A stretch of 45,219 bases of DNA from a virus (lineage: Duplodnaviria; Heunggongvirae; Uroviricota; Caudoviricetes). The DNA lies in IMG/VR virus record IMGVR_UViG_2740892444_000003, positions 1-45,219 of that record. One strand, 5' to 3'. The position numbers were made by a program, and so were the translations under genes. Shown here in pieces: positions 1,009 to 44,349 of the stretch. The notes beneath the pieces were generated by a model, which made no database searches, had not been told where the DNA came from, and worked only from the letters and a program-made list of their open reading frames with translations. Numbering within the stretch: position 1 is the stretch's first letter; each line of letters opens with the position of its first letter.

Positions 1009-1083
1009 GTCCTCTTAGTTAAATGGATATAACGAGCCCCTCCTAAGGGCTAATTGCAGGTTCGATTCCTGCAGGGGACACCA
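1009..1083 (+). tRNA. argW: tRNA-Arg (anticodon CCU), attachment site of the prophage
   Basis: 75-nt sequence GTCCTCTTAGTTAAATGGATATAACGAGCCCCTCCTAAGGGCTAATTGCAGGTTCGATTCCTGCAGGGGACACCA read directly; cloverleaf-compatible with anticodon loop CTCCTAA (CCU), T-arm GGTTCGATTCC and CCA end. Confidence 0.9.
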
Positions 1084-1244
1084 TTTATCAGTTCGCTCCC
1101 ATCCGTACCAGTCCGCAAAATTCCCTGAATATCAAGCCTTCCGTAGATTCACAGTTCGTCATGGTTCGCGTCAGATCGTTGACAGCCGCACTCCATGACG
1201 GGTAAAAAGTGGATAAAATAATTTTACCCACCGGATTTTTACCC

Positions 1245-2402
1245 ATGCTCACCGTTAAGCAGATTGAAGCAGCAAAGCCGAAAGAAAAACCATACCGCCT
1301 ACTCGATGGTAATGGACTGTACCTTTATGTCCCTGTATCCGGGAAAAAGGTATGGCAGCTTCGCTACAAGATTGACGGTAAGGAGAAAGTCCTAACCGTA
1401 GGAAAATATCCGCTAATGACTTTGCAGGAGGCAAGGGATAAGGCATGGACTGCGAGGAAAGACATCTCGGTTGGCATCGATCCGGTAAAAGCGAAAAAGG
1501 CTTCGTCTAACAACAATTCCTTTAGCGCCATTTACAAGGAATGGTACGAGCACAAGAAGCAAGTCTGGTCAGTAGGCTATGCAAATGAACTTGCCAAAAT
1601 GTTTGATGACGACATTTTACCCATCATCGGCGGCCTTGAGATTCAGGATATTGAGCCGATGCAACTGCTGGAAGTAATCCGCAGATTCGAAGATCGCGGT
1701 GCAATGGAGCGAGCCAACAAAGCCCGCAGAAGATGTGGCGAGGTTTTCCGTTACGCTATTGTCACCGGAAGGGCTAAATATAACCCAGCACCTGACCTTG
1801 CTGACGCCATGAAGGGATACCGCAAGAAGAACTTCCCGTTTCTTCCTGCAGACCAGATCCCGGCATTCAACAAAGCACTGGCAACATTTTCAGGAAGTAT
1901 CGTATCGCTCATTGCCACCAAGGTTTTGCGCTATACAGCCCTAAGAACGAAAGAGCTTCGTTCCATGCAATGGAAGAACGTCGATTTTGAAAACAGGATT
2001 ATCACCATCGACGCCAATGTGATGAAGGGACGCAAAATTCATGTGGTTCCTATGTCAGACCAGGTGGTTGAACTTCTCACTACGCTAAGCTCAATCACCA
2101 AACCAGTATCAGAGTTTGTTTTTGCCGGGCGCAACGATAAGAAGAAGCCAATCTGCGAGAATGCGGTATTGCTTGTGATCAAACAAATCGGCTATGAGGG
2201 TCTGGAAAGCGGTCACGGATTCAGGCATGAATTCAGCACGATTATGAACGAGCACGAATGGCCTGCTGATGCTATTGAAGTGCAACTGGCACATGCCAAC
2301 GGCGGATCTGTGCGCGGTATTTACAACCATGCTCAGTATCTAGATAAGCGCAGAGAAATGATGCAGTGGTGGGCGGACTGGATTGATGAAAAGGTGGAGT
2401 GA
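1245..2402 (+). CDS. intS: Tyrosine-recombinase integrase (P4-type)
   Basis: ORF immediately downstream of the tRNA; track ORF begins at a GTG at 1209, likely ATG start at 1245 (MLTVKQIEAAKP...); integrase-like C-terminal region; matches K-12 IntS from memory. Confidence 0.85.
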   Translation: MLTVKQIEAAKPKEKPYRLLDGNGLYLYVPVSGKKVWQLRYKIDGKEKVLTVGKYPLMTLQEARDKAWTARKDISVGIDPVKAKKASSNNNSFSAIYKEWYEHKKQVWSVGYANELAKMFDDDILPIIGGLEIQDIEPMQLLEVIRRFEDRGAMERANKARRRCGEVFRYAIVTGRAKYNPAPDLADAMKGYRKKNFPFLPADQIPAFNKALATFSGSIVSLIATKVLRYTALRTKELRSMQWKNVDFENRIITIDANVMKGRKIHVVPMSDQVVELLTTLSSITKPVSEFVFAGRNDKKKPICENAVLLVIKQIGYEGLESGHGFRHEFSTIMNEHEWPADAIEVQLAHANGGSVRGIYNHAQYLDKRREMMQWWADWIDEKVE

Positions 2403-2551
2403 TCCACCTTAACTATCGAAGAGCACAAAGTCTTGCAATCCAGTGCAAAGCTTTGCGTACCAGAGTTTTTCCTCATCAACTACCGCAAGTATCGATCGAT
2501 TGAGACTTGGATGATAGACTTCATGTCTTTCAGAACTCATTGATTAAATAA

Positions 2552-2914
2552 ATGTTAAAGCTATTTGCAAAGTACACCTCGATTGGTGTGCTGAACACAC
2601 TTATACACTGGGTGGTTTTTGGTGTATGTATCTATGCCGCGCATACCAATCAGGCTCTGGCAAACTTCGCAGGTTTCGTTGTGGCTGTGAGCTTTAGCTT
2701 CTTCGCGAATGCAAAATTCACATTCAAAGCATCGACTACAACGATGCGCTACATGTTATATGTCGGGTTCATGGGAACACTGAGTGCTACTGTTGGATGG
2801 GCTGCTGATAAGTGCTCGCTTCCTCCAATTATCACTCTTATCACCTTCTCCGCCATCAGCCTGGTGTGCGGTTTCGTCTATTCAAAGTTCATTGTCTTTA
2901 GGGATGCGAAATGA
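2552..2914 (+). CDS. gtrA: GtrA flippase-like bactoprenol-glucose translocase (120 aa)
   Basis: Small four-helix hydrophobic protein directly upstream of and overlapping (ATGA) the GtrB gene; canonical gtrABC organisation. Confidence 0.8.
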
Positions 2915-3840
2915 AAATTTCTTTAGTCGTTCCGGTCTTTAACGAAGAGGCCACGATACCTATTTTTTATAAAGCCGTGCGCGAATTTGAAGGGCTTCAG
3001 CAGCATGAAGTCGAGATAGTCTTCATAAACGATGGCAGCAAAGACGCTACAGAATCAATTATCAACGAGCTTGCTGTTGCCGACCCGCTTGTGGTTTCGC
3101 TGTCGTTCACACGTAACTTCGGCAAAGAACCTGCCCTGTTCGCAGGTCTGGACCATGCTACCGGGGAGGCAATTATCCCGATTGACGTTGATCTGCAAGA
3201 CCCTATCGAAGTTATTCCTCACTTGATAGAGAAATGGCAGGCCGGTGCAGATATGGTTCTGGCTAAACGCTCTGACCGCTCCACTGACAGCAGGCTGAAG
3301 CGTAAATCTGCTGAGTGGTTCTATAAACTTCATAACAAAATCAGCAACCCTCAGATAGAAGAGAATGTTGGCGACTTCCGGCTCATGTCTCGCGAAGTAG
3401 TAGAAAACATTAAGCTCATGCCAGAACGAAACCTGTTTATGAAGGGGATACTATCCTGGGTAGGTGGTAAGACAGATGTGGTTGAATACGTAAGAGCCGA
3501 AAGAGCCGCAGGAAAAAGTAAGTTTAATGGCTGGAAGCTTTGGAATCTGGCGCTTGAAGGGATAACGAGTTTTTCTACCTTCCCGCTGAGAATGTGGACG
3601 TATATCGGTCTCTTCGTAGCCGGTTGCTCATTTTTTTATGGGGCATACATGATTGTGGATACCCTTTGTTTTGGCAATCCGGTGAAGGGATATACATCGA
3701 TAATGGTATCGATGCTATTCCTTGGCGGCGTTCAGCTGATAGGTATTGGAGTGCTCGGCGAATACATTGGCCGCATTTACATCGAAACAAAGAACAGACC
3801 AAGATACATTACGAAAAGGGATAATGTTGAACATGAGTGA
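2911..3840 (+). CDS. gtrB: GtrB bactoprenol glucosyltransferase (GT2 family, 309 aa)
   Basis: N-terminal GT2 fold (VPVFNEE...DGSKD...DxD region) with C-terminal membrane helices; follows gtrA. Confidence 0.85.
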
Positions 3841-5748: not shown

Positions 5749-6758
5749 TACGCATACTCCCAAATAATAACCAGCCCAGGTGCGCCATCACCACCAGCCA
5801 CAGCAGCATTGCCCGCTGTAACGGATGATGGGCCGCCGCCAGAACCGTAACCCGAACCATTGATGCCATGAGCATTGTTGGCTGTAATGTATCCTCCTGC
5901 GCCGAAGCGAGACGATCCACCAGGGGCGTCGACAATTATTGAAGAACTGATAACGACGGAGGAGCTGGCGCCTTCACCTGGAGTGCTAATTATGTTCGCC
6001 CCGGTAGCACCGCCTGAAACTACCGCCGCCACGGTAGAAAAAGGGAAATTGTTAGTTGGCCCTGCTGGTTCCCCTGAACTGCCACCTGCCGCCGTCATCA
6101 GGCTGCCGAAAGATGATGTGCCGCCGACAGAAGGATATACATCGGAAACCGTTCCACCCAAACCCTTGCCGCCAACAGTAACCTGAACCCCACTAAATCC
6201 AGAAGTGAACTGCCCTTTAGCGTAAGATCCAGCGCCACCGGCACCACCAACGGATACCTGGCCAGGTCCTGCGGCGCGCGCTCCAGCGCCCCCCCCTCCC
6301 CCGCCAACCATTTCAACAATTACTTTTTTCGTGCCGGGAGTAGCATTATAAATACCGGAACTGTAGAAAACCCGCACGTTCAGCAGGCGACCAACGTATC
6401 CGCTCTCATCTCCCAAACCGAGGTTTTCGAGAGCCGTTTTCACCGTGCCATCCGATTTGATATCGCCAAACGGATTCTTGCGGCTCAGGTATTCAACAGC
6501 AAATCCCGATCCCAGCAATTCAACAAAACCGGGCAGATCACCATTATCAAGCACATCCCGTTGCGTTTTGTCACTTACAAACTGGGCCAGAGCTGCAGCA
6601 ATAAAGCTGGCCTGCCGAATAACCTTATTGACTTGCGCACTGGATGCTTTCCCTGCTGTAAATCCGGATAAAAGCGCAGGCAACGCTTCCCATTCCTCCT
6701 GCGACATAACATTGGCATTCCGATCAGTTGCAAACGCTTTAAAGTCATTTTTCGCCAT
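5748..6758 (-). CDS. Tail fibre protein with glycine-rich repeat region
   Basis: ORF with long Gly/Ala/Ser-rich tracts ([25 protein letters not shown]...) between baseplate genes and Tfa; start taken at ATG overlapping the upstream stop. Confidence 0.65.
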
Positions 6759-7438
6759 CAGAGTAATACTCCCCATGCCCCTACATCAAAACCACTGATG
6801 AATTCGTTATCCATATCAAAACCAAAAAATTTTGAGCCTTCCGATGGAGTTTCCACCGAAGGTGTTTCAATGCCCCCCGCCCATACCCCGGCGGCTTTTA
6901 CTGTTAGATACCCCTGTTTAATTGCCGCAATTAACTCACGCGATACATCTGAAATATCAGTATCAGGAAAGACCCAGACCGATATCGTCATGTCCTGGTT
7001 ATCGACTATCTGCATTCGCAGCCCGGATCCTGCTGTTGCAGCGTCAAGAATTGCTGGAAGCGAATCATTCCGTCCGTCCCAGTTATTAATCGCAATCTTC
7101 GCTTTAAGGATGACACGATAAGTTTCATCGCTGAGGTACATGTATCCGGAATCAGGATCGTATGGCCCCTGCCATACACCCTGATCATATCCAAGCCCGT
7201 CGGTATCCCAGCTGAAATAGACACCTGAGATAGGCTGGCTGACAACACGGCTACGCCCGATCCACAATCCCAGAATGTCAAGTTGCACACCAACGGCAGA
7301 GTCAATATCAAATGCAGTAATCAGCCCTCTGGTGGCAGCCGCAACATCAATAAGCGGCCGGGTCATCAGATCAACATGTGCAAGAAATTTAGGTTTGGTG
7401 GCGTGGTAGTTCGTGATTAGTTCGGTGTATTTGCTCAT
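6758..7438 (-). CDS. Baseplate protein (P2 gpI-like)
   Basis: Position between baseplate J-like and tail fibre genes in a V-W-J-I-H-G gene order; 226 aa. Confidence 0.5.
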   Translation of the reverse strand: MSKYTELITNYHATKPKFLAHVDLMTRPLIDVAAATRGLITAFDIDSAVGVQLDILGLWIGRSRVVSQPISGVYFSWDTDGLGYDQGVWQGPYDPDSGYMYLSDETYRVILKAKIAINNWDGRNDSLPAILDAATAGSGLRMQIVDNQDMTISVWVFPDTDISDVSRELIAAIKQGYLTVKAAGVWAGGIETPSVETPSEGSKFFGFDMDNEFISGFDVGAWGVLL

Positions 7439-8634
7439 GACTCCACCGTTATAACGATATTTTCCGGGGTACAGGACGCAGATTCGTTGTATCTGATATC
7501 AATGTTTGATGACGACAAAGCCCCCGGGGATTTCCCAATCGTCAGTTCCTGAATATCGTAATAGCGTGCATTCCCGCCACTCACCACGCCAAGATTCGCC
7601 GGTGAGTAAATGCGACTTAAAAGGACCGAATCACCGATCGTCAGACTATTGATATAGTCGGAAATAGCCTGCTGGATCTGCTGCCCTATCTGTGAGGTAT
7701 AACCCGTAAAAACTTTTAATTTAATCCGGGCATAAACAGGCACATCACTGGAACGCGAGAATTTGATTACATGGGGATTGCCGTATTTATCCGGAACCGT
7801 AACGGATGTTGTACCGTGAGTGGCTGTACCCTGGCCTTTATTCCCTCTGATAGCCTGAGCAATATCCGTCACATCACCGCCATCCACAATTACAGCAACA
7901 GAGTGTGGCGGTAACCCGTTACCGTCCTCCGAACCAGTATCGTTTTCATAGAGTTTGTGGCGGGTTACACCGGTAACATTAGAAACAGCACCATCCAGTG
8001 CTTCAAATGGGGTTATTGATGGCAACGCAACACTTTGCGACTGGCGGATACGTAACTCAGCATCATTTTCTGCCGGAGAGCCAACAGTAGCCGCAGCAGG
8101 ATTAGTTACCGAAACCCAGCCACGGGTTGGCGTATTAATTTCAGTGATAGTTCCAGCCAGCGCCGCCACTGCACCACTGACGGAACATGTTGCGGTCACC
8201 ATCACTGTACCATCCACGCCGACCACCACTGAAGCAGGCAAACGCCATATCACATTATTACTGTCTTTCACGCTGCCATTAATGATGGTTGTTCCGGCAG
8301 TTCCTGTAAGAAGCAAATCAACCGTAGAGTTCGTCGCGCCTTTACGTGAAATACCATTTATTTTCACGTTACTGGTCAGTGCAGCCCCATAGCCGGTTGC
8401 CGGTGAAAAACAGTTGTAGACAGTTATCGCCATATTATTGGTATCATGAATCGCCAGCGCCATCAGAGCCACCATCTGGCCGTCTTTGCTGTCCGGTTCG
8501 AGGTAGGCATCACTGCCATAAATCTGCTGAAAATAGCTAATCAGGGTGCTGAGTATCGTCTGATAATCAGGCGCACTGATCCCCTCCGCGGTTACCTTTG
8601 CAGATAAACCGAGAGAATCAAGGTTCAGAGCCAT
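7435..8634 (-). CDS. Baseplate J-like protein
   Basis: 399-aa ORF in the conserved position after the gpW-like gene; size and order typical of baseplate J/gp47. Confidence 0.55.
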   Translation of the reverse strand: MALNLDSLGLSAKVTAEGISAPDYQTILSTLISYFQQIYGSDAYLEPDSKDGQMVALMALAIHDTNNMAITVYNCFSPATGYGAALTSNVKINGISRKGATNSTVDLLLTGTAGTTIINGSVKDSNNVIWRLPASVVVGVDGTVMVTATCSVSGAVAALAGTITEINTPTRGWVSVTNPAAATVGSPAENDAELRIRQSQSVALPSITPFEALDGAVSNVTGVTRHKLYENDTGSEDGNGLPPHSVAVIVDGGDVTDIAQAIRGNKGQGTATHGTTSVTVPDKYGNPHVIKFSRSSDVPVYARIKLKVFTGYTSQIGQQIQQAISDYINSLTIGDSVLLSRIYSPANLGVVSGGNARYYDIQELTIGKSPGALSSSNIDIRYNESASCTPENIVITVES

Positions 8635-8987
8635 TACGCCTCCGATGTAACAGTCGTTATTCCATAAAGAGTGTCGATTTCAGCGGAAAACATGACACGT
8701 CGGGTCGTGGTATCCACCGTCGTATTGAAAGAGAGGATTGATTTAACGCCCCGCGTTTCGAGGATGCGCTTACGGATCGCCAGGTTGTAGGTTTCCGGCT
8801 TCTGCTTACCGAGTACGGACTGGATCCACGGAGTCCCCTCGGTGGTGTCGAGAAACCATTGCCCATACCACAATTCGAATCGCGTTTTTACCGCCTGCGC
8901 CACGGCCTCCGGTGAGTTAATCAGCCAGGTATCATCGCCGCTGCCAAAGGTGTAATCGCCATCGGCGTCTTCACGTCTGTATCGCAT
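8634..8987 (-). CDS. Baseplate protein (gpW/gp25-like)
   Basis: 117-aa ORF between spike and J-like genes; overlapping start/stop coupling. Confidence 0.5.
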   Translation of the reverse strand: MRYRREDADGDYTFGSGDDTWLINSPEAVAQAVKTRFELWYGQWFLDTTEGTPWIQSVLGKQKPETYNLAIRKRILETRGVKSILSFNTTVDTTTRRVMFSAEIDTLYGITTVTSEA

Positions 8988-9742
8988 CAGTTAGGCGCTC
9001 CTGTGTTACCGCCGCCGGTCTGTACTCCGCCGTGCGTGTGCGTCATCAGGCTCTTACCACCAGCTTTTACATCGTTAGTCACCGTGACAGGGCCAAGCAT
9101 CGTCGCGGTGCCGCCGCTTTCGCCCATCCCCTGAGAGAGATTCCCGTTTATTGTCACGTTGCCGTTTAGCGTGATGGTGGGTGATGTGATCGTGGTTCCT
9201 CCTTCTGCTGTCGCCGTCAGCGCGCCGGGGGTTTTAACCGTGATGTTATGGCCTGCGGCCACTTCCACAAACGCAGCGCCATCATCAGTACGCAGTTGCG
9301 CGGCGCTGGTGCTGATTCCGCTGATTTTCTGCGCCTGAGACTGCGGACCGACGATACAGAACGCATCCGATAAATCATGCATTCTGTCATCAACCGTCTC
9401 CTGTATCCCGCCGCTCTGCCACCAGAAATCAATACAACGATCGGCAAAAACGACAAGACACTCATCCCCAGCCTTTACCGGAAAAGTCAACGTACAGCCT
9501 CCGCCGCGTGGGAATACCACCGGCACATCCACCAGCAGCGGGTAATTTTTGGTAACGCGATTGCCGTCGTTATCCGTTTCAACCGAACGGATAGAAGGCT
9601 GCACAACCGCCGTCACAGCGTCAGGATCGAATGACTGGACGATGCCAGGCAAAGCGACTCGGATCTGGTTCTTTGTTGTTTCCCGTTCAGATTTGAATGT
9701 TTCAGCAAGGTCGCCGCTGCGGGTCTGGTCAGATACTGCCAT
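8987..9742 (-). CDS. Baseplate assembly/spike protein (gpV-like)
   Basis: 251-aa ORF with Gly/Thr-rich C-terminal beta-repeat region typical of spike proteins; position before gpW-like gene. Confidence 0.55.
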   Translation of the reverse strand: MAVSDQTRSGDLAETFKSERETTKNQIRVALPGIVQSFDPDAVTAVVQPSIRSVETDNDGNRVTKNYPLLVDVPVVFPRGGGCTLTFPVKAGDECLVVFADRCIDFWWQSGGIQETVDDRMHDLSDAFCIVGPQSQAQKISGISTSAAQLRTDDGAAFVEVAAGHNITVKTPGALTATAEGGTTITSPTITLNGNVTINGNLSQGMGESGGTATMLGPVTVTNDVKAGGKSLMTHTHGGVQTGGGNTGAPN

Positions 9743-10943: not shown

Positions 10944-11276
10944 TTAACCAGAAACCTTTTTGCATGGAAAGGAACCGATGATTTTCGGCGCATCCATGCT
11001 GTTCTGCAGCAGTTGGACATTCAGGAAAGCTTTTCCGTTACGTTTCACAAACTCAAAGCCGTAATTGTTACCATCACGGGAAGGCATCAGGCCCATGTCC
11101 ATTTTTATGTTTGAATAGTCACCATCTTTTCCCAGAAATTTTATCTTCTGTGATGTGACAGTTTCACCGTTAATAACAGTCATTCCGTCACCGGTCATCG
11201 TGTAGTTGCCGCACTGAATTGCAGCCATCGCCGGAGCAGTAACCATCATAACTAACGCCAAACATAACCGTTTCAT
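10944..11276 (-). CDS. Small secreted protein with Sec signal peptide (about 110 aa)
   Basis: N-terminus MKRLCLALVMMVTAPAMA followed by a soluble domain; start overlaps the stop of the gpD-like gene. Confidence 0.5.
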   Translation of the reverse strand: MKRLCLALVMMVTAPAMAAIQCGNYTMTGDGMTVINGETVTSQKIKFLGKDGDYSNIKMDMGLMPSRDGNNYGFEFVKRNGKAFLNVQLLQNSMDAPKIIGSFPCKKVSG

Positions 11277-12340: not shown

Positions 12341-12342
12341 GC

Positions 12343-32494: not shown

Positions 32495-32496
32495 TG

Positions 32497-32673
32497 TCAC
32501 TTCCTCGCACGATGTCTTAGCCACCGGATATCCCACAGGTGAGCCGTGTAATTGAAGGTTTTTACGTCAGATTCTTTTGGGATTGGCTTGCGTTTATTTC
32601 TGGAGCGTTTCGTTGGAAGGTATTTGCAGTTTTCGCAGATGATGTCAGTGATGCTTCGTCGCTGTCGTCTCAT
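32497..32673 (-). CDS. ninE: NinE-like small protein
   Basis: 58-aa ORF from internal ATG ([23 protein letters not shown]...), recognised as NinE-like; overlaps the Dam gene stop by 4 nt. Confidence 0.4.
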
Positions 32674-36207: not shown

Positions 36208-36504
36208 TCAGAATTGCATATCAATTTGCTTAAAATCCTCGGTGGCGGCCGGGGATTTTTTCTTTGTGATTTCATCAAGCGCATACTTAAAAGCCCTGCT
36301 AATCGGACTGATGTCTGATGCCATTCCGAAAGCACACAAGACCGAAGCAATAAATCTCCAGTCCGTTCTGCTTATCTTCGATTCATGACAGCCAATCATC
36401 TTTGCCAGACCGCGCTGGGTAATAGCTGACAGATTGATAAGTAAATCTGTTTCTGCGCGATCAACGTCACGCTGTGATAGTTTGCTGTAACTTGTTCTTT
36501 CCAT
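36208..36504 (-). CDS. cII: CII-like transcriptional activator
   Basis: 98-aa ORF with HTH and C-terminal [18 protein letters not shown] resembling lambda CII (KKRPAATERSEQIQMEF). Confidence 0.7.
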
Positions 36505-36589
36505 TTCTTAAGATTTCCAATAGTGAATAGTTAGTTGAAAGGTATGCGTGGAAACGCATATGGCCTTAGTTGGTCAGATATCTTGGGGC

Positions 36590-36635
36590 TCGCTTTTCAG
36601 CGACGTAGGACGAATGTCCATTGTTACAAAGAGCG
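36590..36635 (-). promoter_or_regulatory. nutR-like site (boxA CGCTCTTTG and boxB hairpin TCGCT-GAAAA-AGCGA)
   Basis: Read on the minus strand between cro and cII; boxB has a 5-bp stem and GAAAA pentaloop like lambda boxB. Confidence 0.55.
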
Positions 36636-36642
36636 GGGTTAC

Positions 36643-36876
36643 TTATGCTGCTGATGCTCTACGCGATACGAACACCAGATTTTCCTTTTTCACAGGTTTA
36701 TAACCCGTGAAATTACGAGTGGCTTCTTCGATTGCATTCGCTTTATCTGGGGAAGCTCTTCGAAACCCATATGCAATCTGATCAAGATAGCCAACTGAAG
36801 TATTCGCTAATGCGGCGAGTCGCTTCCATTCCTCACTAGAAGCCTCTTTTCGCCAGCGTAGTAGTTCATTACTCAT
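36643..36876 (-). CDS. cro: Cro-like repressor (HTH)
   Basis: 77-aa ORF divergent from cI across the operator region; first gene of the rightward early operon. Confidence 0.6.
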   Translation of the reverse strand: MSNELLRWRKEASSEEWKRLAALANTSVGYLDQIAYGFRRASPDKANAIEEATRNFTGYKPVKKENLVFVSRRASAA

Positions 36877-36989
36877 TAGTGCCTCCGTTTATCACACAGA
36901 GCAACTTTACCATTTTGATAAATAAACTGCAATGGAGATTTATCAAAATGCGTATTTATCCATTTGCTAAATAGAGGGAGAATCGTGGG
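36877..36989. promoter_or_regulatory. Divergent immunity promoter/operator region (OR/PR/PRM analogue)
   Basis: 113-bp AT-rich gap between cro and cI with repeated TTTATC(A/C)/GATAAA half-sites, e.g. TTTACCATTTTGATAAA at 36906..36922. Confidence 0.55.
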
Positions 36990-37694
36990 ATGGAAAACAA
37001 AGATATTCGCAAATCGAATCTGGCGTTTTTGCTAGATGAGCATAAAAAAATCGCTGGTAACACTAATGCAAGCTTTGCCGATAAGCTTGGAGTTAGCCCT
37101 TCTCAACTCACGCAAGTCTCCGGTGAAAAAAGCACTCGAAACATAGGGGATAAACTAGCAAGAAAATTCGAAGCCGCACTTGGGTTACCTAATGGGTGGC
37201 TTGATTTGGTACATGATGTAACACCAATTGCATCATGCTCAGATTCTTTAACTTTTGTCGGTCAGGTAAGAAAAGGGTTAGTGCGCGTGGTTGGTGAGGC
37301 AATTCTTGGTGTTGATGGTGCCATCGAGATGACCGAAGAGCGCGATGGGTGGCTCAAGATTTATAGCGATGATCCAGATGCCTTTGGTCTTCGTGTGAAA
37401 GGAGACAGCATGTGGCCTAGAATAAAATCAGGAGAATATGTACTCATTGAGCCTAACACCAAAGTATTCCCGGGTGATGAGGTGTTTGTCAGAACCGTTG
37501 AAGGACACAACATGATCAAAGTTCTTGGCTATGACAGAGACGGAGAATACCAGTTTACAAGCATCAACCAGGACCATAGGCCAATAACGTTGCCTTATCA
37601 TCAAGTAGCAAAGGTGGAGTATGTGGCTGGTATTCTGAAGCAATCTCGCCATCTGGATGACATCGAGGCAAGGGAGTGGCTGAAAAGTTCGTGA
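36990..37694 (+). CDS. cI: CI-like repressor with LexA/S24 autopeptidase domain
   Basis: N-terminal HTH and C-terminal S24 domain (GDSMWPRIKSGEYVLIEP...), divergent from cro. Confidence 0.85.
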   Translation: MENKDIRKSNLAFLLDEHKKIAGNTNASFADKLGVSPSQLTQVSGEKSTRNIGDKLARKFEAALGLPNGWLDLVHDVTPIASCSDSLTFVGQVRKGLVRVVGEAILGVDGAIEMTEERDGWLKIYSDDPDAFGLRVKGDSMWPRIKSGEYVLIEPNTKVFPGDEVFVRTVEGHNMIKVLGYDRDGEYQFTSINQDHRPITLPYHQVAKVEYVAGILKQSRHLDDIEAREWLKSS

Positions 37695-37860
37695 CTTCAT
37701 CGTCACATAGCTGATAGCCAGTGGCCTGAAGAGACGTTTGGGTAATTCCAATTGTTATTTATGAACAGTCAATTCCGCCAGATTGGTGATGATGACAAGC
37801 CGCTATGGCTTAGCTTCAACATGAATACATTCATCGTAACCACAGCAGGGAGTTTAACGA

Positions 37861-38865
37861 ATGAATTCTATTGAAAATCATGATGTTTATGTGTATACAG
37901 GCGATATTCATCGTGATGGTTATCTTGATCTCACCAATGAAATCAAGAAACGTAAGTCACAACATGGATTAAAAGAAAATGTTATCTTCTGTGTTGCTAC
38001 TTATGGCGGTGATCCAAATGCAGGTTATCGTATAGGTAGAGCTCTACAGCACCATTATGAAACGGTAACACTTTTAGTTGTTGGACCATGCAAAAGTGCT
38101 GGTACACTAATAGCTATAGCAGCCAATAAACTTGTTATTGGCGACATGGGGGAGCTTGGACCATTAGATATCCAACTGAAAAAAAACGATGAAATAGGTG
38201 AAATGAGTTCTGGTTTAGCTATCATGACAGCTCTTGATGCTCTAAAGGAACGCTCTATTTCAGCGTTTAACTCACACCTTGTTAAGATAAGGTACGAAAA
38301 TCAGATCAGTACTAAAATGTCTGCTGATATCGCAACCAGACTTACAGAAGCGTTGATAGCACCTATGGCCGCACAGATAGATCCTATAAAGCTTGGTGAA
38401 CATCAGCGCGCAATGAGTATAGCTATCACTTATGGTCAACGATTAGCAGACAAACCAAGCAGCCTAAAAGAAGGGGCGTTAGGCAAACTAATAGCCTCAT
38501 ATCCTTCACATGGATTTGTTATCGACAGAAAAGAAGCCAAGGAACTTTTCAAGTGTGTTGAACATCCTGAAGGCATAACAGAAATACTCTATAATCTTTT
38601 CTGTGACAAAATTCATAGTGGTGAAATTCCAACATTTGGAAAGCCAAGAGTAATGGATTTCACTGTTTCCCAACAAGATAAAGAGGAATACACTAATGCC
38701 GAAGAATCTGCAACCGGAGATGGAAGTTCTCAACAGGATGCTGGAAAGCCAGATCCAGGAAGGTCGCGATCTGGCAAGAAAAGCGGAACAACACCTGAAC
38801 GAGATCAAGAAGGAATTGGAGCCGTATCAATTCAACCACCAGATGAACAGCAACCTAATGCGTGA
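37861..38865 (+). CDS. ClpP-fold serine peptidase (SDH/S49-like) in the rex position
   Basis: Motifs VATYGGDPNAGYRIGRAL and VVGPCKSAGTLIAIAA resemble the oxyanion/active-site Ser region of SDH/SppA/ClpP-clan peptidases; last ~55 codons are Gly/Ser/Pro-rich and overlap another ORF. Confidence 0.55.
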   Translation: MNSIENHDVYVYTGDIHRDGYLDLTNEIKKRKSQHGLKENVIFCVATYGGDPNAGYRIGRALQHHYETVTLLVVGPCKSAGTLIAIAANKLVIGDMGELGPLDIQLKKNDEIGEMSSGLAIMTALDALKERSISAFNSHLVKIRYENQISTKMSADIATRLTEALIAPMAAQIDPIKLGEHQRAMSIAITYGQRLADKPSSLKEGALGKLIASYPSHGFVIDRKEAKELFKCVEHPEGITEILYNLFCDKIHSGEIPTFGKPRVMDFTVSQQDKEEYTNAEESATGDGSSQQDAGKPDPGRSRSGKKSGTTPERDQEGIGAVSIQPPDEQQPNA

Positions 38866-38881
38866 TCTCTTTGCTCTGTAA
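38696..38881 (+). CDS. Small helical protein (61 aa) overlapping the 3' end of the peptidase gene in the +1 frame
   Basis: AAGAGGA RBS 8 nt upstream of ATG 38696; protein-like helical sequence; followed directly by a terminator. Confidence 0.4.
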   Translation: MPKNLQPEMEVLNRMLESQIQEGRDLARKAEQHLNEIKKELEPYQFNHQMNSNLMRDLFAL

Positions 38882-38895
38882 TTAATTCCTCACAT

Positions 38896-38922
38896 CCCGG
38901 CCTCAGCGCCGGGTTTTCTTTG
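38896..38922 (+). terminator. Intrinsic terminator after the cI-peptidase operon
   Basis: CCCGGC-loop-GCCGGG hairpin followed by TTTTCTTTG. Confidence 0.6.
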
Positions 38923-39089
38923 CCTCACGTTCGCCCCAAAACACATAACCAATTGTATTTATTTGAAAATTAACAGATACAACTCACTAAAACGCGCAAT
39001 TCTGATCCCCCTCAAGTCTCTTTATTCCTTCTGATAAATTCCTGCAATCAAATAAAAAACCATAATAATCAACAGGATATTTGAAAACA

Positions 39090-39140
39090 AAAACAATTTA
39101 TCATTTTGCTATTGCCATTAATTTATCATTTCGATAAAGT
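39090..39140 (+). promoter_or_regulatory. Leftward operator/promoter region (OL/PL analogue)
   Basis: 17-bp dyad ATTTATCATTTCGATAAAG (39121..39139) plus another TTTATCA at 39097, same half-site family as the cro-cI region. Confidence 0.5.
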
Positions 39141-39186
39141 TAACTCATCAGCAGGACGCTGGAAGCCAAACGGAACAGACTGGCAG

Positions 39187-39232
39187 GCTCTTTAAACAAC
39201 GTCGAACACTCGACTACGTGGCTGAAAAGCCA
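39187..39232 (+). promoter_or_regulatory. nutL-like site (boxA GCTCTTTAA and boxB hairpin TGGCT-GAAAA-AGCCA)
   Basis: Located ~100 nt upstream of the N-like gene; boxB stem-loop with GAAAA loop mirrors the nutR hairpin. Confidence 0.55.
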
Positions 39233-39330
39233 GATCACCCAACCACATAAGCTGTGGGATGCAATGCCGAAGCAACCGTCTCAGGAGGGGCTTCGAGATT
39301 GCATCGCCAAAGTTTATTCGGGAGGAATCT

Positions 39331-39603
39331 ATGTCCAGAAAAACAGAATTTAAAGGCACCTCAGCTTCTCGCCGTAGAGCTCGTCGCGCAAACCTGCAAA
39401 GTCAGGAGGCGATCAGCTCCGACAAGCTACACAGGCCAACCCCTTCACGAGTGGTCTTGCAATGCAAGCGCAAACCAGCAATGAGAGCAGAAGTGATAAC
39501 TCTGACAACGTTGACCAGAAAATATGAAGGTTCAACTTGTCTTCCGAACGTAGCCATTTACGCGGCAGGCTACAGGAAATCAAAACAACTGACAGCAAGG
39601 TGA
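39331..39603 (+). CDS. N: N-like transcription antiterminator with arginine-rich motif
   Basis: 90-aa basic protein with N-terminal ARM (TSASRRRARRANLQSQ) and GGAGGA RBS; first gene of the leftward operon after nutL. Confidence 0.6.
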   Translation: MSRKTEFKGTSASRRRARRANLQSQEAISSDKLHRPTPSRVVLQCKRKPAMRAEVITLTTLTRKYEGSTCLPNVAIYAAGYRKSKQLTAR

Positions 39604-39666: not shown

Positions 39667-39831
39667 ATGCTCAAGAAAGTCAAACGCCGACTTTACAAAG
39701 AAGGTAGATATTCATGTCAATTGCCAAAATGCGACACAACAAAATGGAGTGTCGATGATTGGTGTAACTGGATAGATAGATACGGAACTTGGTGGGAGCG
39801 TATTTATTTTCGCAGCAAACCACTTATTTGA
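39667..39831 (+). CDS. Small Cys/Trp-rich hypothetical protein (54 aa)
   Basis: ATG with GAGG RBS; track ORF begins upstream at a GTG. Confidence 0.35.
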   Translation: MLKKVKRRLYKEGRYSCQLPKCDTTKWSVDDWCNWIDRYGTWWERIYFRSKPLI

Positions 39832-39839
39832 GGTGAGAT

Positions 39840-40091
39840 ATGGAGTTTCATGAAAGTGCGATTTGTGATTTTCGCGCTAACGCAAATTCAGTAAAACCAC
39901 AGCCAATTGCAGTTCTTTTTAAAACAATGGGTGCGTGGGCTGTTTTATGCTTCGCCTCTGATGACACTGACGCAAGAATGGCAATAGGCCAAGAGATGGA
40001 GATGGACCCGACAAACGATGAATTCATAATTTATGGCGCTCCATCTAATTACTTACTTGATACCTGCAACATTTACAACAAGGCTGCCTGA
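39840..40091 (+). CDS. Hypothetical protein (83 aa)
   Basis: ATG with GAGGTGAG RBS; early-left operon. Confidence 0.4.
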   Translation: MEFHESAICDFRANANSVKPQPIAVLFKTMGAWAVLCFASDDTDARMAIGQEMEMDPTNDEFIIYGAPSNYLLDTCNIYNKAA

Positions 40092-40227
40092 TGGTGGCCT
40101 TCATTTTTGGCATAAACAACAGAATAAACACTGCACTGTGTATTCATTCCAACGAGTGAATACACGGAGCAATGTCGCTCGTAACTAAACAGGAGCCGAC
40201 TTGTTCTGATTATTGGAAATCTTCTTT

Positions 40228-40252
40228 GCCCTCCAATGTGAGGGCTTTTTTA
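40228..40252 (+). terminator. Intrinsic terminator within the early-left operon (tL1-like)
   Basis: GCCCTC-CAATGT-GAGGGC hairpin followed by TTTTTT. Confidence 0.65.
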
Positions 40253-40317
40253 TATGCATACCAATAACGCTTCAATTGAGGCGTTTTCGTTATGCAATCA
40301 AACAGAAGGAGTTACCC

Positions 40318-40452
40318 ATGATGCACTTTCAGTTCGCGGGTAGCGGCGTCATGTCCGCTTTCTACCCGCACGAATCTGAATTATCACGCCGAGTTAAACA
40401 ATTAATCAGAGCAGCAAAGAAACAACTGGAGGCGTTATGCGCAATGAAATAG
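40318..40452 (+). CDS. cIII: CIII-like protein (44 aa)
   Basis: PHESELSRRVKQLIRAAKKQL resembles the amphipathic helix of lambda CIII (PSESLLERITRKLRDGWKRL). Confidence 0.5.
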   Translation: MMHFQFAGSGVMSAFYPHESELSRRVKQLIRAAKKQLEALCAMK

Positions 40453-40589
40453 CCATCAATCACCAGGTGCTTCGTGCAGCACAAAACAAAGCAGTAATAG
40501 CCAGATTTATTGGTGATTCCAAAATGTGGCTTGAAGCAAATAAAGCGATGAAATCAGCTATCAACCTTCCATGGTATCGCAGGAAATGA
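40437..40589 (+). CDS. Small hypothetical protein (50 aa)
   Basis: Hand-translated (below the track's 60-aa threshold): GGAGG RBS, ATG 40437, MRNEIAINHQVLRAAQNKAVIARF... Confidence 0.3.
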   Translation: MRNEIAINHQVLRAAQNKAVIARFIGDSKMWLEANKAMKSAINLPWYRRK

Positions 40590-40756
40590 GTTTTACAGAT
40601 AACTGGTCAGACGAAGAATTCATTCGTCAGATGAAAGAATTAATCGGTAACGAAGGAGATATTCATGTTACTTGCAACCACAGTGAAGGAGAGCAAGTTA
40701 CAGAGGCGCATGTACACGCAGCAGGCGTTAATGTATCGCCAGAAGGGAGATCGTGA
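40586..40756 (+). CDS. Small hypothetical protein (56 aa)
   Basis: ATG overlapping the upstream stop (ATGA); track ORF begins at 40571. Confidence 0.3.
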   Translation: MSFTDNWSDEEFIRQMKELIGNEGDIHVTCNHSEGEQVTEAHVHAAGVNVSPEGRS

Positions 40757-40845
40757 AGGTGTTCGCGTATTTTTAAATGCGGCAAAGACTGAAGTATTAA
40801 ATCAGCGTTATTTACTTGGGCCGTGTCCATTCTGAGAACAATCAT

Positions 40846-41451
40846 ATGAGCAAAGAATTTTACGCAAGACTGGCAGCTATTCAGGAGAATCTGAACGCGC
40901 CAAAGAATCAGTACAACTCATTCGGTAAATATAAATACAGAAGCTGCGAAGACATTCTTGAAGGCGTTAAGCCGTTACTGAATGGCCTGTTTTTATCAAT
41001 CAGCGATGAAGTTGTGTTGATTGGTGATCGGTATTACGTGAAAGCCACGGCAACTATTACCGATGGCGAAAACAGTCATACAGCAACCGCTCTTGCACGA
41101 GAGGAAGAAAGCAAGAAAGGAATGGATTCTGCACAAGTTACGGGCGCTACAAGCTCTTATGCACGCAAGTATTGCCTCAATGGTTTGTTCGGCATTGATG
41201 ATGCGAAAGATGCAGATACCGACGAGCATAAACATCAGCAGAACGCAGCAGCAAAGCAATCAAAACCATCACCTACACCTGAACAGGTTCTAAAAGCATT
41301 CACTGACGCAGCAATGCAGAAAAACACCGTAGAAGAGCTTAAACAGGCGTTCGCCAAAGCGTGGAAGATGCTCGAAGGCACACCGGAGCAGCACAAAGCG
41401 CAGGACGTTTACAACATCAGACGAGACGAATTAGAAGGGGCAACTGCTTAA
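40846..41451 (+). CDS. erf: Erf-family single-strand annealing recombinase
   Basis: N-terminus MSKEFYARLAAIQENLNAPKNQYNSFGKYKYRSCEDILEGVKPLL recognised as P22 Erf-like. Confidence 0.75.
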   Translation: MSKEFYARLAAIQENLNAPKNQYNSFGKYKYRSCEDILEGVKPLLNGLFLSISDEVVLIGDRYYVKATATITDGENSHTATALAREEESKKGMDSAQVTGATSSYARKYCLNGLFGIDDAKDADTDEHKHQQNAAAKQSKPSPTPEQVLKAFTDAAMQKNTVEELKQAFAKAWKMLEGTPEQHKAQDVYNIRRDELEGATA

Positions 41452-41834
41452 TGGCACATTCGATTACAGTAAGACTAAACAAACCCGCAAGAGAGTTTCA
41501 GGCCGGGGAAAATATCGGATTCAACATCCGTGCTGGCGTTCAGTATTACGATCGCCAGACAAAAAAGAAAGAATGGACAAACTACAGCGCCGTTGTATTT
41601 GCCAAGCCGGGAGCGCGAGCGGATTACTACCGTAGTGTTCTTGTTGAAGGTGGCATTGTGGAAATTACCGGAGAAAACATCAGGGTTGATGTTTATCAGG
41701 GGCAAAATGGTCAATCAATCACTCTTGAATTACTGAATGCAAAGATTGGATTTGCAACTTCAGGAAACAGCCAACAGCAGCAAAGTAGCAATCATCAAAA
41801 TCATCCTGTATACGACGATTCCATCCCATTCTGA
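41451..41834 (+). CDS. Phage single-stranded DNA-binding protein
   Basis: 127-aa OB-fold-like protein ending in the acidic tip DDSIPF (compare E. coli SSB DDDIPF) preceded by a Gln-rich linker; start overlaps the erf stop. Confidence 0.6.
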   Translation: MAHSITVRLNKPAREFQAGENIGFNIRAGVQYYDRQTKKKEWTNYSAVVFAKPGARADYYRSVLVEGGIVEITGENIRVDVYQGQNGQSITLELLNAKIGFATSGNSQQQQSSNHQNHPVYDDSIPF

Positions 41835-41857
41835 TTTAGAAAAATAAGGATTTAATT

Positions 41858-42151
41858 ATGCCAGCGCCTCTGTATGGTGCGGATGACGCGCGCCGCTGTT
41901 CCGGCAATTCCGTATCGGAGGTGCTGGATAAATTCAGAAAAAACTACGATCGGATAATGTCGCTACCGCAGGAAACGAAAGAGGAAAAGGAATTTCGCCA
42001 TTGTATATGGCTTGCAGAGAAAGAAGAACTCGAGCGAATTTACCAGACATCAATCCGACCATTCCGCAAAGCCACATATACCCACTTCCCTGAAATTGAC
42101 CCGCGCCTGCGTAATTACCGCTCACGCTATGGCGCTATCAGTAATGACTGA
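41858..42151 (+). CDS. abc2: Anti-RecBCD protein Abc2
   Basis: 97-aa protein ([31 protein letters not shown]...) recognised as P22 Abc2-like. Confidence 0.7.
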
Positions 42152-42161
42152 GGAATTTACC

Positions 42162-42329
42162 ATGAGAGGACTTGCATACAATCCCGGCATTCTTCCGGCA
42201 GAAATGATTATTCGCCAACGCGTAAAGCCAATGCCATCGAGAGAGGAATTGCTTAAAAGAAATAGTTTCGGTTCTGTTAATGACAACAAATATCTGAATG
42301 CGATGTTGCGCAAAGGAGGCAACCGGTGA
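42162..42329 (+). CDS. Small hypothetical protein (55 aa)
   Basis: ATG with GAGGAA RBS; track ORF extends upstream in another context. Confidence 0.35.
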
Positions 42330-42459
42330 CTGGACATGCAGCGATCCTCGACATGTGCTGTGGCAGCCGCATGTTCTGGTTAGATAAGAATGACGAACGG
42401 GCGAGATAAGCGATCGGTTAAGTGCTATAGTAATGCGCTTTTGTATTTATGGAGTGAAT

Positions 42460-43158
42460 ATGAAAAATATCATACTGGCATCATTGTTAGTGGCATCGCC
42501 GGGTGCATTTGCAGCCAGCTTTGACTGCCAAAAGGCTTCGACAGCAATCGAACATAAGATCTGCGATAACGAACGGCTGTCAAAATTAGACGAACAGCTT
42601 AGCTCTGCCTATTCTAGTGCCCTCAAAGAAAACCCAGAGAACGCAGACACCCTAAAAATGGTTCAACGTCAGTGGGTAAATATGCGTGGAAAACTCACTG
42701 ATAATAAGGCTCTGGAGCTGGCTTATCTTATCCAAATTAATGGCCTCAAAGGTTTGGGGAGTTCAGTCAGCGTAACAGCGGCCAATGAGATACCCACGTC
42801 GACGCAGAAACATTCTGAAGAGCAGGAAGAAACAAGTAAGGCAGAAGTTAAGTCGGTCAAGAACGGCAATAAGCTAACCTTAGAGTCATTCCGAGCTAAA
42901 TATGTAGAAGTAGATGGTGAGTATTACAGCACGACATCCATTCCTAGAGGCAGTTCGTTCTTGTTCACTTGCGCCAGTCGTATTGCTGATGACCAAGTGA
43001 ATGTTTGGAAGAAACATGCAGCCAAAGAGGGCAAAATCGACCTATTCTTTGAGGTTGAGAATCACTTACACACTGCTATGTTGAACGCCAATTTCCAGAA
43101 GTTGAATTCAGACCCTGCCAAAAGAGGTATTTGTAATCTGATTAACGCAGTGCCGTAA
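42460..43158 (+). CDS. Secreted DUF1311/LprI-like protein (lysozyme-inhibitor-like fold), moron
   Basis: Signal peptide MKNIILASLLVASPGAFA; mature N-terminus FDCQKASTAIEHKICDNERLSKLDEQLSSAY matches the LprI-type pattern (C-x-A-x-T...E..IC...L..LD..L...Y). Confidence 0.55.
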   Translation: MKNIILASLLVASPGAFAASFDCQKASTAIEHKICDNERLSKLDEQLSSAYSSALKENPENADTLKMVQRQWVNMRGKLTDNKALELAYLIQINGLKGLGSSVSVTAANEIPTSTQKHSEEQEETSKAEVKSVKNGNKLTLESFRAKYVEVDGEYYSTTSIPRGSSFLFTCASRIADDQVNVWKKHAAKEGKIDLFFEVENHLHTAMLNANFQKLNSDPAKRGICNLINAVP

Positions 43159-43197: not shown

Positions 43198-43394
43198 CAG
43201 CCTTTTCTTATTTGTAATAAGCAGTACTTAGTAGTGCTTATAAAACAGAATAAAAAACATATGACTTTGGCGATTACCCAGTAAAGATATTCGAAATAAA
43301 TGTAAATATCGGCAATGAATAACAATCCTCGCACTCGCGGGGATTTCTTTTATCTGAACTCGCTACGGCGAGTTTTGTTTTATGGAGATGATAA

Positions 43395-43562
43395 ATGCAC
43401 TTCCGAGTCACAGGTGAATGGAATGGAGAACCATTCAACAGAGTTATCGAAGCAGAGGACATCAACGACTGCTATGACCACTGGATGATATGGGCGCAGA
43501 TAGCACATGCAGACGTAACCAATATTCGAATTGAAGAACTGAAAGAACACCAAGCCGCCTGA
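43395..43562 (+). CDS. Small hypothetical protein (55 aa)
   Basis: Hand-translated MHFRVTGEWNGEPFNRVIEAEDINDCYDHWMIWAQIAHADVTNIRIEELKEHQAA; followed by a terminator. Confidence 0.35.
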   Translation: MHFRVTGEWNGEPFNRVIEAEDINDCYDHWMIWAQIAHADVTNIRIEELKEHQAA

Positions 43563-43577
43563 TGGCGGTTTTTTATT
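43553..43577 (+). terminator. Intrinsic terminator
   Basis: GCCGCC-TGAT-GGCGG hairpin followed by TTTTTTATT. Confidence 0.55.
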
Positions 43578-43619
43578 GCCTGATTTGCAGGTTCGATTCC
43601 CTATTCGGAGATAGCACTC

Positions 43620-43820
43620 ATGCAACACGAACTACAACCTGATTCACTGGTTGATTTGAAATTCATCATGGCTGATACTGGCTTCGGTAAAACCTTCATT
43701 TATGACCGGATTAAGTCCGGCGACCTGCCAAAAGCCAAAGTTATCCACGGGCGAGCAAGATGGTTATATCGTGACCATTGTGAATTCAAAAATAAGCTCT
43801 TAAGCCGCGCCAATGGGTAA
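43620..43820 (+). CDS. torI: Excisionase / recombination directionality factor (TorI/AlpA family)
   Basis: 66-aa protein (MQHELQPDSLVDLKFIMADTGFGKTFIYDRIKSGDLPKAKV...) recognised as KplE1 TorI; lies ~75 nt inside attR. Confidence 0.75.
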   Translation: MQHELQPDSLVDLKFIMADTGFGKTFIYDRIKSGDLPKAKVIHGRARWLYRDHCEFKNKLLSRANG

Positions 43821-44349
43821 AATAGCGGGTAAAATATTTCTCACATCTAAAAAATACCATTCCAATCAATCCCCTGCTGCCTCAAGTAGATGTCTGCAGG
43901 GGACACCAGATACCCTTCAAACGAAATCTACCTTCACCCCGTAAAAGATGGGTTTGGCAGCACACTTGCCTTATATCTACTCATTTTTACTGCAACAGGT
44001 TGAAATCTCAGCACTGTCAGAAAGCGCTGATGACTAAACAGCCCTGGGCCGGGCGATGTAACCATCACACAGAATCCTGATAGCGAAATATGGCGTGACT
44101 CGATACTTCACTCCGCAATGCATTCCTTGATGAATTCGCAGGACCGTGATACACGGGACAGGTCACTGAATGACGACAATGTCCTGGAAATCAGCGAACC
44201 GCGCATCTGAAGTACATTTGAGCGACTGTACCAGAACATGAATGAGGCGTTTGGATTAGGCGATTATTAGCAGGGCTAAGCATTTTACTATTATTATTTT
44301 CCGGTTGAGGGATATAGAGCTATCGACAACAACCGGAAAAAGTTTACGT

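Follow-up and report, generated by a model that had tools for sequence, protein, structure and literature searches.

Introduction

KplE1 (CPS-53), a prophage of Escherichia coli K-12 inserted at the tRNA gene argW, has a 16-nt core (CTGCAGGGGACACCAT) and excises in vivo (Panis et al., PMC2951348). In its left attachment (att) site, attL, which overlaps the intS promoter, there are five TorI sites (GTTCG, GATCG, GTCCG) arranged as two blocks, and the KplE1 recombination module is common to phages HK620, CUS-3 and Sf6 (PMC2951348). The Salmonella phage SEN34 (Brunovirus SEN34; 'temperate 26' lambda cluster) was induced with mitomycin C, forms plaques, is a myovirus by electron microscopy (EM) and is genetically lambda-like (PMC5261728). 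Phage 923, a plaque-forming myovirus released by a urinary E. coli isolate, has vB_EcoM-683R1 and SEN34 as its nearest relatives (PMC12945033). Here we analysed a 45,219-nt stretch of DNA, the virus record IMGVR_UViG_2740892444_000003 (hereafter the window), in which a 42,825-bp element is integrated at argW in E. coli. The element is very probably a complete temperate lambdoid phage genome with a contractile tail. It couples a myovirus virion module to an integration system otherwise found in podoviruses and in the K-12 remnant, and adds the immunity region of a Shiga toxin (Stx) phage. A first-pass annotation of the window had proposed an apparently intact mosaic prophage at argW, and the element indeed proved to be bounded by att sites and free of detectable truncations or frameshifts in any lytic-cycle module.

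Attachment sites and recombination module

ARAGORN placed argW, a tRNA-Arg(CCU) gene, at 1009..1083 on the plus strand (Rfam tRNA, 63.4 bits), and an Rfam scan of the window returned the tRNA only. The last 15 nt of argW, CTGCAGGGGACACCA, form the attL core (1069..1083) and equal the annotated 'attP core' of HK620. A repeat search found the same 15 nt at 43894..43908, the attR core, which begins 73 nt past the torI stop codon; the first-pass annotation had placed it some 75 nt past a TorI-like gene. The window holds exactly two copies, also when one mismatch is allowed, where shuffled sequences lead one to expect none. The repeat is exactly 15 bp long, the next base being T at attL and G at attR. 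It bounds an element of 42,825 bp (1084-43908, with one core copy counted).

Three independent tests identify these repeats as the true att sites. The excision junction built in silico (584-1083 joined to 43909-44408) gave an unbroken 100% match over 1000 bp to many E. coli genomes, where it is annotated as yfdC, tRNA-Arg and an oligosaccharide major facilitator superfamily (MFS) transporter (yfdC-argW-cscB); at least 80% of this empty site was covered in 1412 genomes. The prophage ends map onto HK620, 43515-43908 onto 1762..1369 and 1069-2447 onto 1383..1, and the two segments overlap at the annotated HK620 attP core, so that joining them rebuilds the attP/int/xis region of that phage. Finally, attL aligned as nearly identical to the attL of K-12 KplE1. 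Insertion regenerates the tRNA's 3' end at argW. Rightward of attR (43909-45219) the chromosome runs into the csc sucrose locus with cscB, where the K-12 flank has dsdC.

The element carries the KplE1/HK620-type argW recombination module, with IntS and TorI encoded at opposite prophage ends. The tyrosine integrase gene intS (1245..2402, plus strand; PHROG integrase) encodes 385 amino acids (aa), of which 380 are identical in K-12 IntS, and its product is 97.9% identical to HK620 Int. The 66-aa recombination directionality factor (excisionase) encoded by torI (43620..43820, plus strand) equals K-12 TorI at all 66 positions and is identical to HK620 hkaC. On the plus strand between the attL core and intS, an arm at 1084..1244 overlaps the intS promoter and contains five TorI pentamers, GTTCG and GTCCG followed by GTTCG, GTTCG and GATCG. 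All five, together with the promoter region, are invariant in an alignment of the window, KplE1 attL and HK620 attP. The core, CTGCAGGGGACACCA(T), has 15 of the 16 KplE1 core nucleotides duplicated here. Because IntS, TorI and the att sites are essentially those of KplE1 and HK620, integration and excision of this prophage rest on a validated system, and we infer that both are active in this particular strain.

The element resembles KplE1 in its argW site, TorI (100%), IntS (99%), the five TorI sites over PintS and the position of gtrA/gtrB beside int. KplE1, however, is a 10.2-kb remnant without repressor, structural, lysis or replication genes, and its core measures 16 nt rather than 15. Alignment of K-12 CPS-53 with the window recovered yfdC-argW-intS-gtrAB (91%), torI-attR (98%) and 77 bp of the tail fibre, in keeping with the contrast that the first-pass annotation had drawn between the two. 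A descent of CPS-53 by deletion from exactly this type of phage was considered and rejected, since beyond the int-gtrAB and torI ends just 77 bp match. The element shows what an intact phage with the argW integration module of the decayed K-12 prophage would look like. HK620, CUS-3 and Sf6, for their part, are P22-like podoviruses, whereas the element has contractile-tail genes.

Two tandem elements, for example a prophage next to a satellite or an older remnant, might also account for the region between the repeats, and a second argW-derived 16-mer at 43585-43600, 294 bp left of the attR core, would fit such an arrangement. However, the core has no third copy, even with one mismatch, the same 16-mer is present in the single-genome phage HK620 and in KplE1, and the window encodes one integrase and one set of each module. 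We consider tandem elements extremely unlikely, and treat the region as one prophage.

The 16-mer, TTGCAGGTTCGATTCC, is a tRNA-derived direct repeat in its own right, with two copies (1054-1069 and 43585-43600) against zero expected. One copy is the T-arm of argW, abutting the att core, and 20 nt separate the other from the torI start codon downstream. Consequently torI is flanked on both sides by argW-like sequence, with the T-arm 16-mer on one and the 15-bp core on the other. A TorI pentamer, GTTCG, lies within the repeat, which also overlaps the place where HK620 has an annotated cII site (TTGC-N6-TTGC, window 43576-43588) and is kept in both KplE1 and HK620.

A virion module of the SEN34 type

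When 28 SEN34 structural proteins were compared with the window by tblastn, 24 gave matches. These are collinear without exception, show 52-96% identity and span the full protein in 21 cases. Partial matches were obtained for the tape measure (ends only, with a divergent middle), gp8 (84/133 aa) and the tail fibre (N-terminal 90 aa). TerS, the fibre chaperone and two small open reading frames (ORFs) of SEN34 found no match in the window. Judged by tblastn, Pfam and PGAP names, the SEN34-type set is present and collinear: TerL, DUF1073 portal, DUF2213 protein, DUF2184 capsid, DUF3383 sheath, DUF3277/KPP10 tube, tape measure, hub, spike, Baseplate_J and DUF2612 proteins. The element thus belongs to the SEN34 lineage of virion modules. 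By analogy with the EM of SEN34 and phage 923, we infer a contractile-tail morphology for its virion.

The first-pass annotation had described a myovirus tail of P2/Mu type. Its contractile nature stands, but its origin has to be revised. The sheath, tube and hub fall into the Pfam families DUF3383, KPP10_Orf10 and E217_GP41-like, not into the sheath and tube families of P2 (FI/FII) or Mu (L/M), and the only P2-like parts are Baseplate_J and the GpV apex. No P2/Mu module was recovered, and the head-tail block is collinear with that of SEN34 (Brunovirus).

All virion genes lie on the minus strand. The packaging genes are those for TerS (25966-26517), whose exact sequence is present in E. coli, and TerL (24341-25963; Pfam Terminase_2 among the packaging hits), followed by the portal (22875-24341; Phage_portal_3) and the major capsid protein (19554-20495; Major_capside). 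Neck and head-completion genes, a cement protein, a DUF2213 protein and a head morphogenesis protein also lie within 17454..26517, and the tblastn matches of these head genes to SEN34 run from residue 1 to the end at 83-96% identity. The tail genes (10944..17450), collinear with SEN34 and supported by Pfam, comprise a small protein, hub, plug and baseplate protein and then the tape measure (13232-15220), tail chaperone (15398-15850, with a -1 frameshift extension to 15210), tail tube (15854-16294) and tail sheath (16305-17450). At the end of the chaperone gene the -1 frame is open across T TTT TTG into a DUF6889 ORF, which is the usual arrangement of a predicted programmed frameshift. Baseplate genes at 6758..9742 encode DUF2612, Baseplate_J, wedge and spike proteins, the spike with a GpV apex motif, and show full-length tblastn matches to SEN34 gp22-26 as well as Pfam support. 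The tail fibre (5748-6758) and its assembly protein (5347-5748) complete the block. The fibre is 336 aa long with a Gly-rich C-terminal part, and its N-terminal 90-129 aa match the fibres of SEN34 and the vB_EcoM phages.

SEN34 shares with the element the combination of a lambdoid early region and a myovirus morphogenesis block, and the same gene order from terL to the baseplate, including an accessory slot between hub and spike. It differs in integrase and att site, TerS, tail-fibre tip, lysis genes and immunity region; it has RecT/Exo where the element has Erf/Abc2, and an acetyltransferase rather than gtrABC for O-antigen modification.

E. coli versions of the structural module are found in vB_EcoM-606R2, -611R5 and -683R1, in phage 923 and in the prophage of strain MMC-J-0020, with DNA identities of 94-98% for 606R2 and 99.6% for MMC-J-0020. 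Over the first 25,980 bp of the window, a stretch that takes in the whole block up to terL, the alignment to the annotated argW prophage of MMC-J-0020 has no gap and 99.6% identity, and every coding sequence has equal length in the two. That prophage also shares int, gtr, O/P, cI, cro, cII, the SDH protease and N with the element, but differs in TerS, Q, part of nin and the recombination module (Rad52-type there, Erf here). Of 5426 complete E. coli genomes, 246 contain the module at a coverage of at least 80%, and the family already has viable isolates in SEN34 and the urinary coliphage 923.

The early region of vB_EcoM-606R2 is unrelated, with a DNA polymerase and a TIR-like protein, and its record includes host genes. 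Positions 1-2254 of that record (ON470579.1) encode a host-like tRNA adenosine deaminase (tadA), phosphatidylglycerophosphatase C and a YfhH-like regulator. Such content suggests a predicted prophage region and not packaged DNA, and we did not use the record as proof of viability; a literature search for a publication on vB_EcoM-606R2 returned none.

Repressor, early control and lysis genes

The right arm is organized as in lambdoid phages, with divergent cI and cro around OR, the same operator family at PL, and cII, O/P, nin, Q, lysis and morphogenesis genes. PHROG, Pfam and scans for operators, nut sites, promoters and terminators placed the immunity and early-control region at 36208..39603. 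It holds cII (minus strand), nutR with matched boxA/boxB (about 36589-36640), the 77-aa cro (36643-36876, minus strand), three OR sites (36904-36972) and cI (36990-37694, plus strand). The gene 3' of cI encodes an SDH/ClpP-like protease and is followed by a strong terminator (38896-38913). Two further sites of the operator family TTTATCAnnnTGATAAA, to which those of OR also belong, form OL (39095-39141) with an overlapping PL-like promoter, and nutL (39190-39233) and N (39331-39603, plus strand; PHROG N-like) follow. nutL and nutR have boxA and the boxB GCTGAAAAGC in common, and their boxB hairpins match. The CII/N circuitry named in the first-pass annotation is therefore present in its parts (cII, N and nut); N/nut and cI are of H-19B type, and N is not that of lambda. 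Sequence predicts two antitermination cascades, N/nut and Q/qut.

The cI protein matches the repressors of Stx1 phage H-19B, Stx2 phage ST2-8624, many Stx1a phages and mEp506 at 100% identity. It has helix-turn-helix and Peptidase_S24 domains, with the catalytic Ser and Lys kept (Pfam and alignment), and its C-terminal 154 aa, the protease domain, are 95% identical to the 933W repressor. The 933W and H-19B repressors have their C-terminal domain in common (review, PMC3202840). Since cI equals the H-19B repressor and its protease domain is 95% identical to that of 933W, SOS induction of the prophage is plausible, and we regard it as likely though unproven. Autocleavage of the 933W repressor has reportedly been published, and Leu-Gly is said to be the cleavage site, which would fit AILG in the present cI; a text search for 'Leu-Gly' came back empty. 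A PDB sequence search with cI matched only pseudoazurin, which we discarded as spurious. With cI, operators and N/nut shared with H-19B, the lysogen should be immune to Stx phages of that immunity type, and the prophage should also be able to recombine with them.

The PL operon (39667..43158, plus strand; PHROG) comprises two small ORFs, cIII, kil, the Arf-like orf61, Erf (40846-41451), an Abc1-analogue/SSB-like protein (41451-41834), Abc2 (41858-42151) and a secreted LprI-like protein (42460-43158). It is 94% identical in DNA to mEp506, and the homologues in HK022 are labelled P22 erf-like, Abc1 analogue and Abc2, which together with PHROG hits bears out the P22-type Erf/Abc2 named in the first-pass annotation.

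On the minus strand, O (35137-36036) and the DnaB-like helicase P (33711-35147) belong to a set of replication genes with 98.4% DNA identity to HK620, and four ori iterons (35549-35649) coincide with the annotated HK620 rep_origin. P is of the DnaB type found in P22, HK022 and HK620, unlike lambda P. The nin region (30393..33634, minus strand; PHROG and Pfam) encodes NinH, RusA, a DUF1364 protein, Roi/KilAC, NinF, NinX, NinE, an N6-adenine methyltransferase and the NinB that had already been recognized from the sequence. The nin, O and P proteins are full length relative to HK620 and mEp506. The antiterminator gene Q (29878-30396, minus strand) is identified by its identity to HK75, and PR' (TTGACA-18-CATAAT, 29900-29871, minus strand; 11/12 in a promoter scan) has qut and a terminator downstream. 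Because Q, PR', qut and the terminator form one stretch with 99.1% identity over 1031 bp to HK75, where Q, promoter and terminator are annotated, Q and its target have been inherited together.

The lysis cassette, also on the minus strand, is of lambda type, with a dual-start class I holin, the R transglycosylase and Rz/Rz1. S (29046-29369), which starts with MKM, and R (28586-29062) are 97% and 98% identical to lambda. Rz (28152-28589) departs from the lambda-type description given to the whole cassette in the first-pass annotation, with 58% identity to lambda and 98% to mEp506. The Rz1 lipoprotein (28205-28390, 61 aa) is embedded in Rz in the +1 frame and has a VSAC lipobox and a Pro-rich tract.

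With lambda, HK022, HK75, mEp506 and H-19B the element shares the order int...N-cI-cro-cII-O-P-nin-Q-lysis-structural, and its Erf, Abc2 and kil match mEp506 and HK022. These phages differ from it in being siphoviruses. Their head and tail genes are unrelated to those of the element, they use different attachment sites, and their cargo beside cI is rexAB, Nun or HicABC where the element has an SDH-type protease.

Integrity of the prophage and its mosaic structure

All right-arm proteins are full length relative to homologues in HK620, mEp506 or MMC-J-0020, and no gene is truncated. The sole length difference, cro of 77 versus 61 aa, is explained by a 1-nt deletion in mEp506 that is absent from the window; the deposited mEp506 cro (8060-8245) carries it relative to both the window and MMC-J-0020. 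As far as sequence can tell, the genes and sites for virion structure, lysis, replication and regulation are all undamaged and fit one another (OL with OR, nutL with nutR, Q with PR' and qut, O with the iterons). The first-pass annotation had named frameshifts or truncations in essential genes as the finding that would undo its proposal, and careful alignment to SEN34, HK620, mEp506 and MMC-J-0020 turned up none. The prophage is probably inducible. The suggestion that it may be so has gained support, as cI equals the repressor of the Stx phage H-19B.

Several observations weigh against a complete and functional phage genome. Judged from an alignment with LexA, lambda cI and HK022 cI, the repressor lacks Ala-Gly where the LexA/lambda cleavage site aligns; VRKG stands there, and AILG by spacing. 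The N-terminal part of TerS is unlike that of the closest structural relatives (65% identity to vB_EcoM-606R2 TerS), so that the pac site and the terminase may be mismatched. The tail-fibre allele is rare, and among the best 25 of 45 matches no phage record extends beyond its N-terminal 45% (155 aa). In length the genome exceeds that of SEN34 by 5%, and protein-inactivating point mutations are invisible from sequence.

The element might accordingly be complete by ORF content yet functionally defective (cryptic), through missense lesions, a TerS/pac or fibre/chaperone mismatch, or an SOS-blind repressor, in which case it would only excise, or merely contribute gtr and accessory genes. The mosaic junction inside terS, the rare fibre allele, whose MMC-J-0020 counterpart is called 'partial' by PGAP, the non-canonical cI cleavage motif and the fact that the best isolated phage matches no more than about 41% of the genome are all consistent with such a defect. 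Nevertheless, every ORF is open and full length, the fibre ORF is open in relatives too, and identical copies of TerS, the tail fibre assembly protein and cI turn up in many E. coli genomes; moreover, cI is identical to the repressor of inducible Stx phages, and the regulatory sites are matched. We therefore judge a cryptic prophage unlikely, though a possibility to be taken seriously, and retain the reading of a complete temperate phage genome.

Within a cluster of eight tail-fibre proteins related to this allele, six are 336 aa long, and full-length copies occur in several E. coli strains. PGAP marks the MMC-J-0020 fibre (39232-40242) as 'incomplete, missing C-terminus', yet its ORF is open, with the same stop and 336 codons. 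The flag looks like an annotation artefact of the unusual Gly-rich C-terminal part.

Mosaicism had been noted from the outset, and the comparison with MMC-J-0020, the closest E. coli relative, located its breakpoints at module borders (about 25.98, 28.6, 29.5, 30.4, 32.1-33.2, 33.7, 39.6 and 43.5 kb). The exact right arm (26-44 kb) was intact in none of the 5426 complete E. coli genomes, the best of which covers 66-67% of it, a further point against the completeness of the genome. It also raises the prospect that the assembly stitched the arm together from pieces of several lambdoid prophages in one draft genome, the more so as lambdoid repeats often break or mis-join short-read assemblies. 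However, all genes are intact and the breakpoints coincide with classical borders between modules. There is just one int, one torI and one pair of att sites, the length is plausible for a phage genome, and both flanks are contiguous in empty-site genomes. In addition, the exact tail-fibre protein occurs on a 296,660-bp NCBI contig. An assembly chimera is thus very unlikely, and the mosaic most plausibly belongs to one phage genome.

Approximate whole-genome similarity was 0.35 to SEN34, 0.41 to vB_EcoM-606R2, 0.22 to HK620 and 0.25 to mEp506. With a similarity of 0.35 to the exemplar SEN34 and 41.6% of the prophage aligned, the element falls outside the ICTV genus Brunovirus; with SEN34 it shares the structural module only. 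As all these similarities are below the genus rule of at least 70% nucleotide identity across the whole genome, the prophage cannot be placed in any current genus. Its modules are well known and their combination is new, within a prophage family that is common in E. coli. As an illustration of lambdoid mosaicism it is a clean one, which will not surprise phage specialists.

Predicted life cycle

In the lysogen, the H-19B-type cI would bind the three sites of OR and the two of OL, and would be co-transcribed with the SDH/ClpP-like protease gene up to the terminator. The gtrABC products would glucosylate the O-antigen, causing serotype conversion and blocking the adsorption of phages that need the unmodified antigen. 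After DNA damage, activated RecA would prompt self-cleavage of cI, and PL and PR would fire. Antitermination by N at nutL and nutR would then let Erf/Abc2, O/P and Q be expressed, while TorI and IntS would excise the genome at the 15-bp core. Readthrough from PR' mediated by Q would express S-R-Rz/Rz1 and the SEN34-type head and contractile-tail genes, and TerS/TerL would package the DNA. If the prophage is active, it would change the O-antigen of its host, and gtr and accessory genes could move between E. coli strains.

Serotype conversion and accessory genes

The phages SfV and SfX are gtr-carrying serotype-converting phages in which int-gtrA-gtrB-gtrC lies directly beside att. The element has a comparable O-antigen glucosylation cassette adjoining int and att on the plus strand, predicted to consist of the flippase gene gtrA (2552-2914), the bactoprenol glucosyltransferase gene gtrB (2911-3840) and a type-specific gtrC-like gene (3833-5317). 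Proteins of E. coli MMC-J-0020 annotated by PGAP match the products at 100% identity, and the gtrC-like sequence (PHROG GtrC-like, E=1.8e-88) occurs exactly on 43 contigs. The serotype-conversion genes recognized in the first-pass annotation are accordingly all accounted for at 2552-5317. Escherichia phage HF4s is alike in int-gtrA-gtrB (88.9% DNA identity, adjoining att) and differs in its type-specific GtrC and the remaining genome. A paper on NC-SV/svsR concerns an unrelated siphovirus at icd and is not relevant here.

A scan for an SOS-controlled antirepressor found one near-consensus LexA box in the window, CTGTATAATAATACAG at 4568-4583 (plus strand), which lies within gtrC. We do not take it to be functional, as it is at chance level (0.56 expected).

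Two genes on the minus strand encode a YafO-family toxin of 138 aa (9785-10201; Pfam YafO_toxin, E=4e-17) and, upstream of it, a 190-aa partner without family assignment (10203-10775; PHROG of unknown function). They form an accessory (moron) insert inside the tail operon, between the hub and spike genes, and have no counterpart in SEN34, which has other small genes at this spot. The pair is found together in Citrobacter, Enterobacter and Klebsiella genomes. Directly 3' of cI, co-oriented with it and upstream of OL/PL, lies the gene for the 334-aa SDH/ClpP-like serine protease (37861-38865, plus strand), a position taken by rexAB in lambda, by stk in 933W and by hicABC in mEp506. Its exact sequence occurs on 210 contigs; it belongs to PHROG 21683 (unknown function), and its match to Pfam SDH_protease is weak, below the family threshold. 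Between abc2 and torI, a gene at 42460-43158 (plus strand) encodes a secreted LprI/DUF1311-like protein (Pfam LprI) of 232 aa, counted from the Met after the signal-peptide region, with several terminators downstream (43163-43571). PADLOC returned nothing for the SDH protease, the YafO pair, the LprI-like protein or NinX.

Candidates for an exclusion function are the protease that occupies the rexAB/stk slot and, inside the baseplate operon, the YafO-like toxin together with the 190-aa protein beside it. We tentatively suggest, as a joint reading that we ourselves find doubtful, that one of these loci, which stand at classical moron positions, may provide an undescribed superinfection-exclusion or abortive-infection function and, separately, that the argW-derived flanks of torI may reflect capture of a recombination directionality factor gene into an ancestral attP, or may act as a control site responsive to TorI and cII.

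Accessory genes also lie between the packaging and lysis modules (26542..27951), namely orf78 on the plus strand and, on the minus strand, orf85 and a gene for a KilA-N/ORF11CD3 protein (Pfam, PHROG). This region has 97.9% DNA identity to hkbK-hkbL of HK620.

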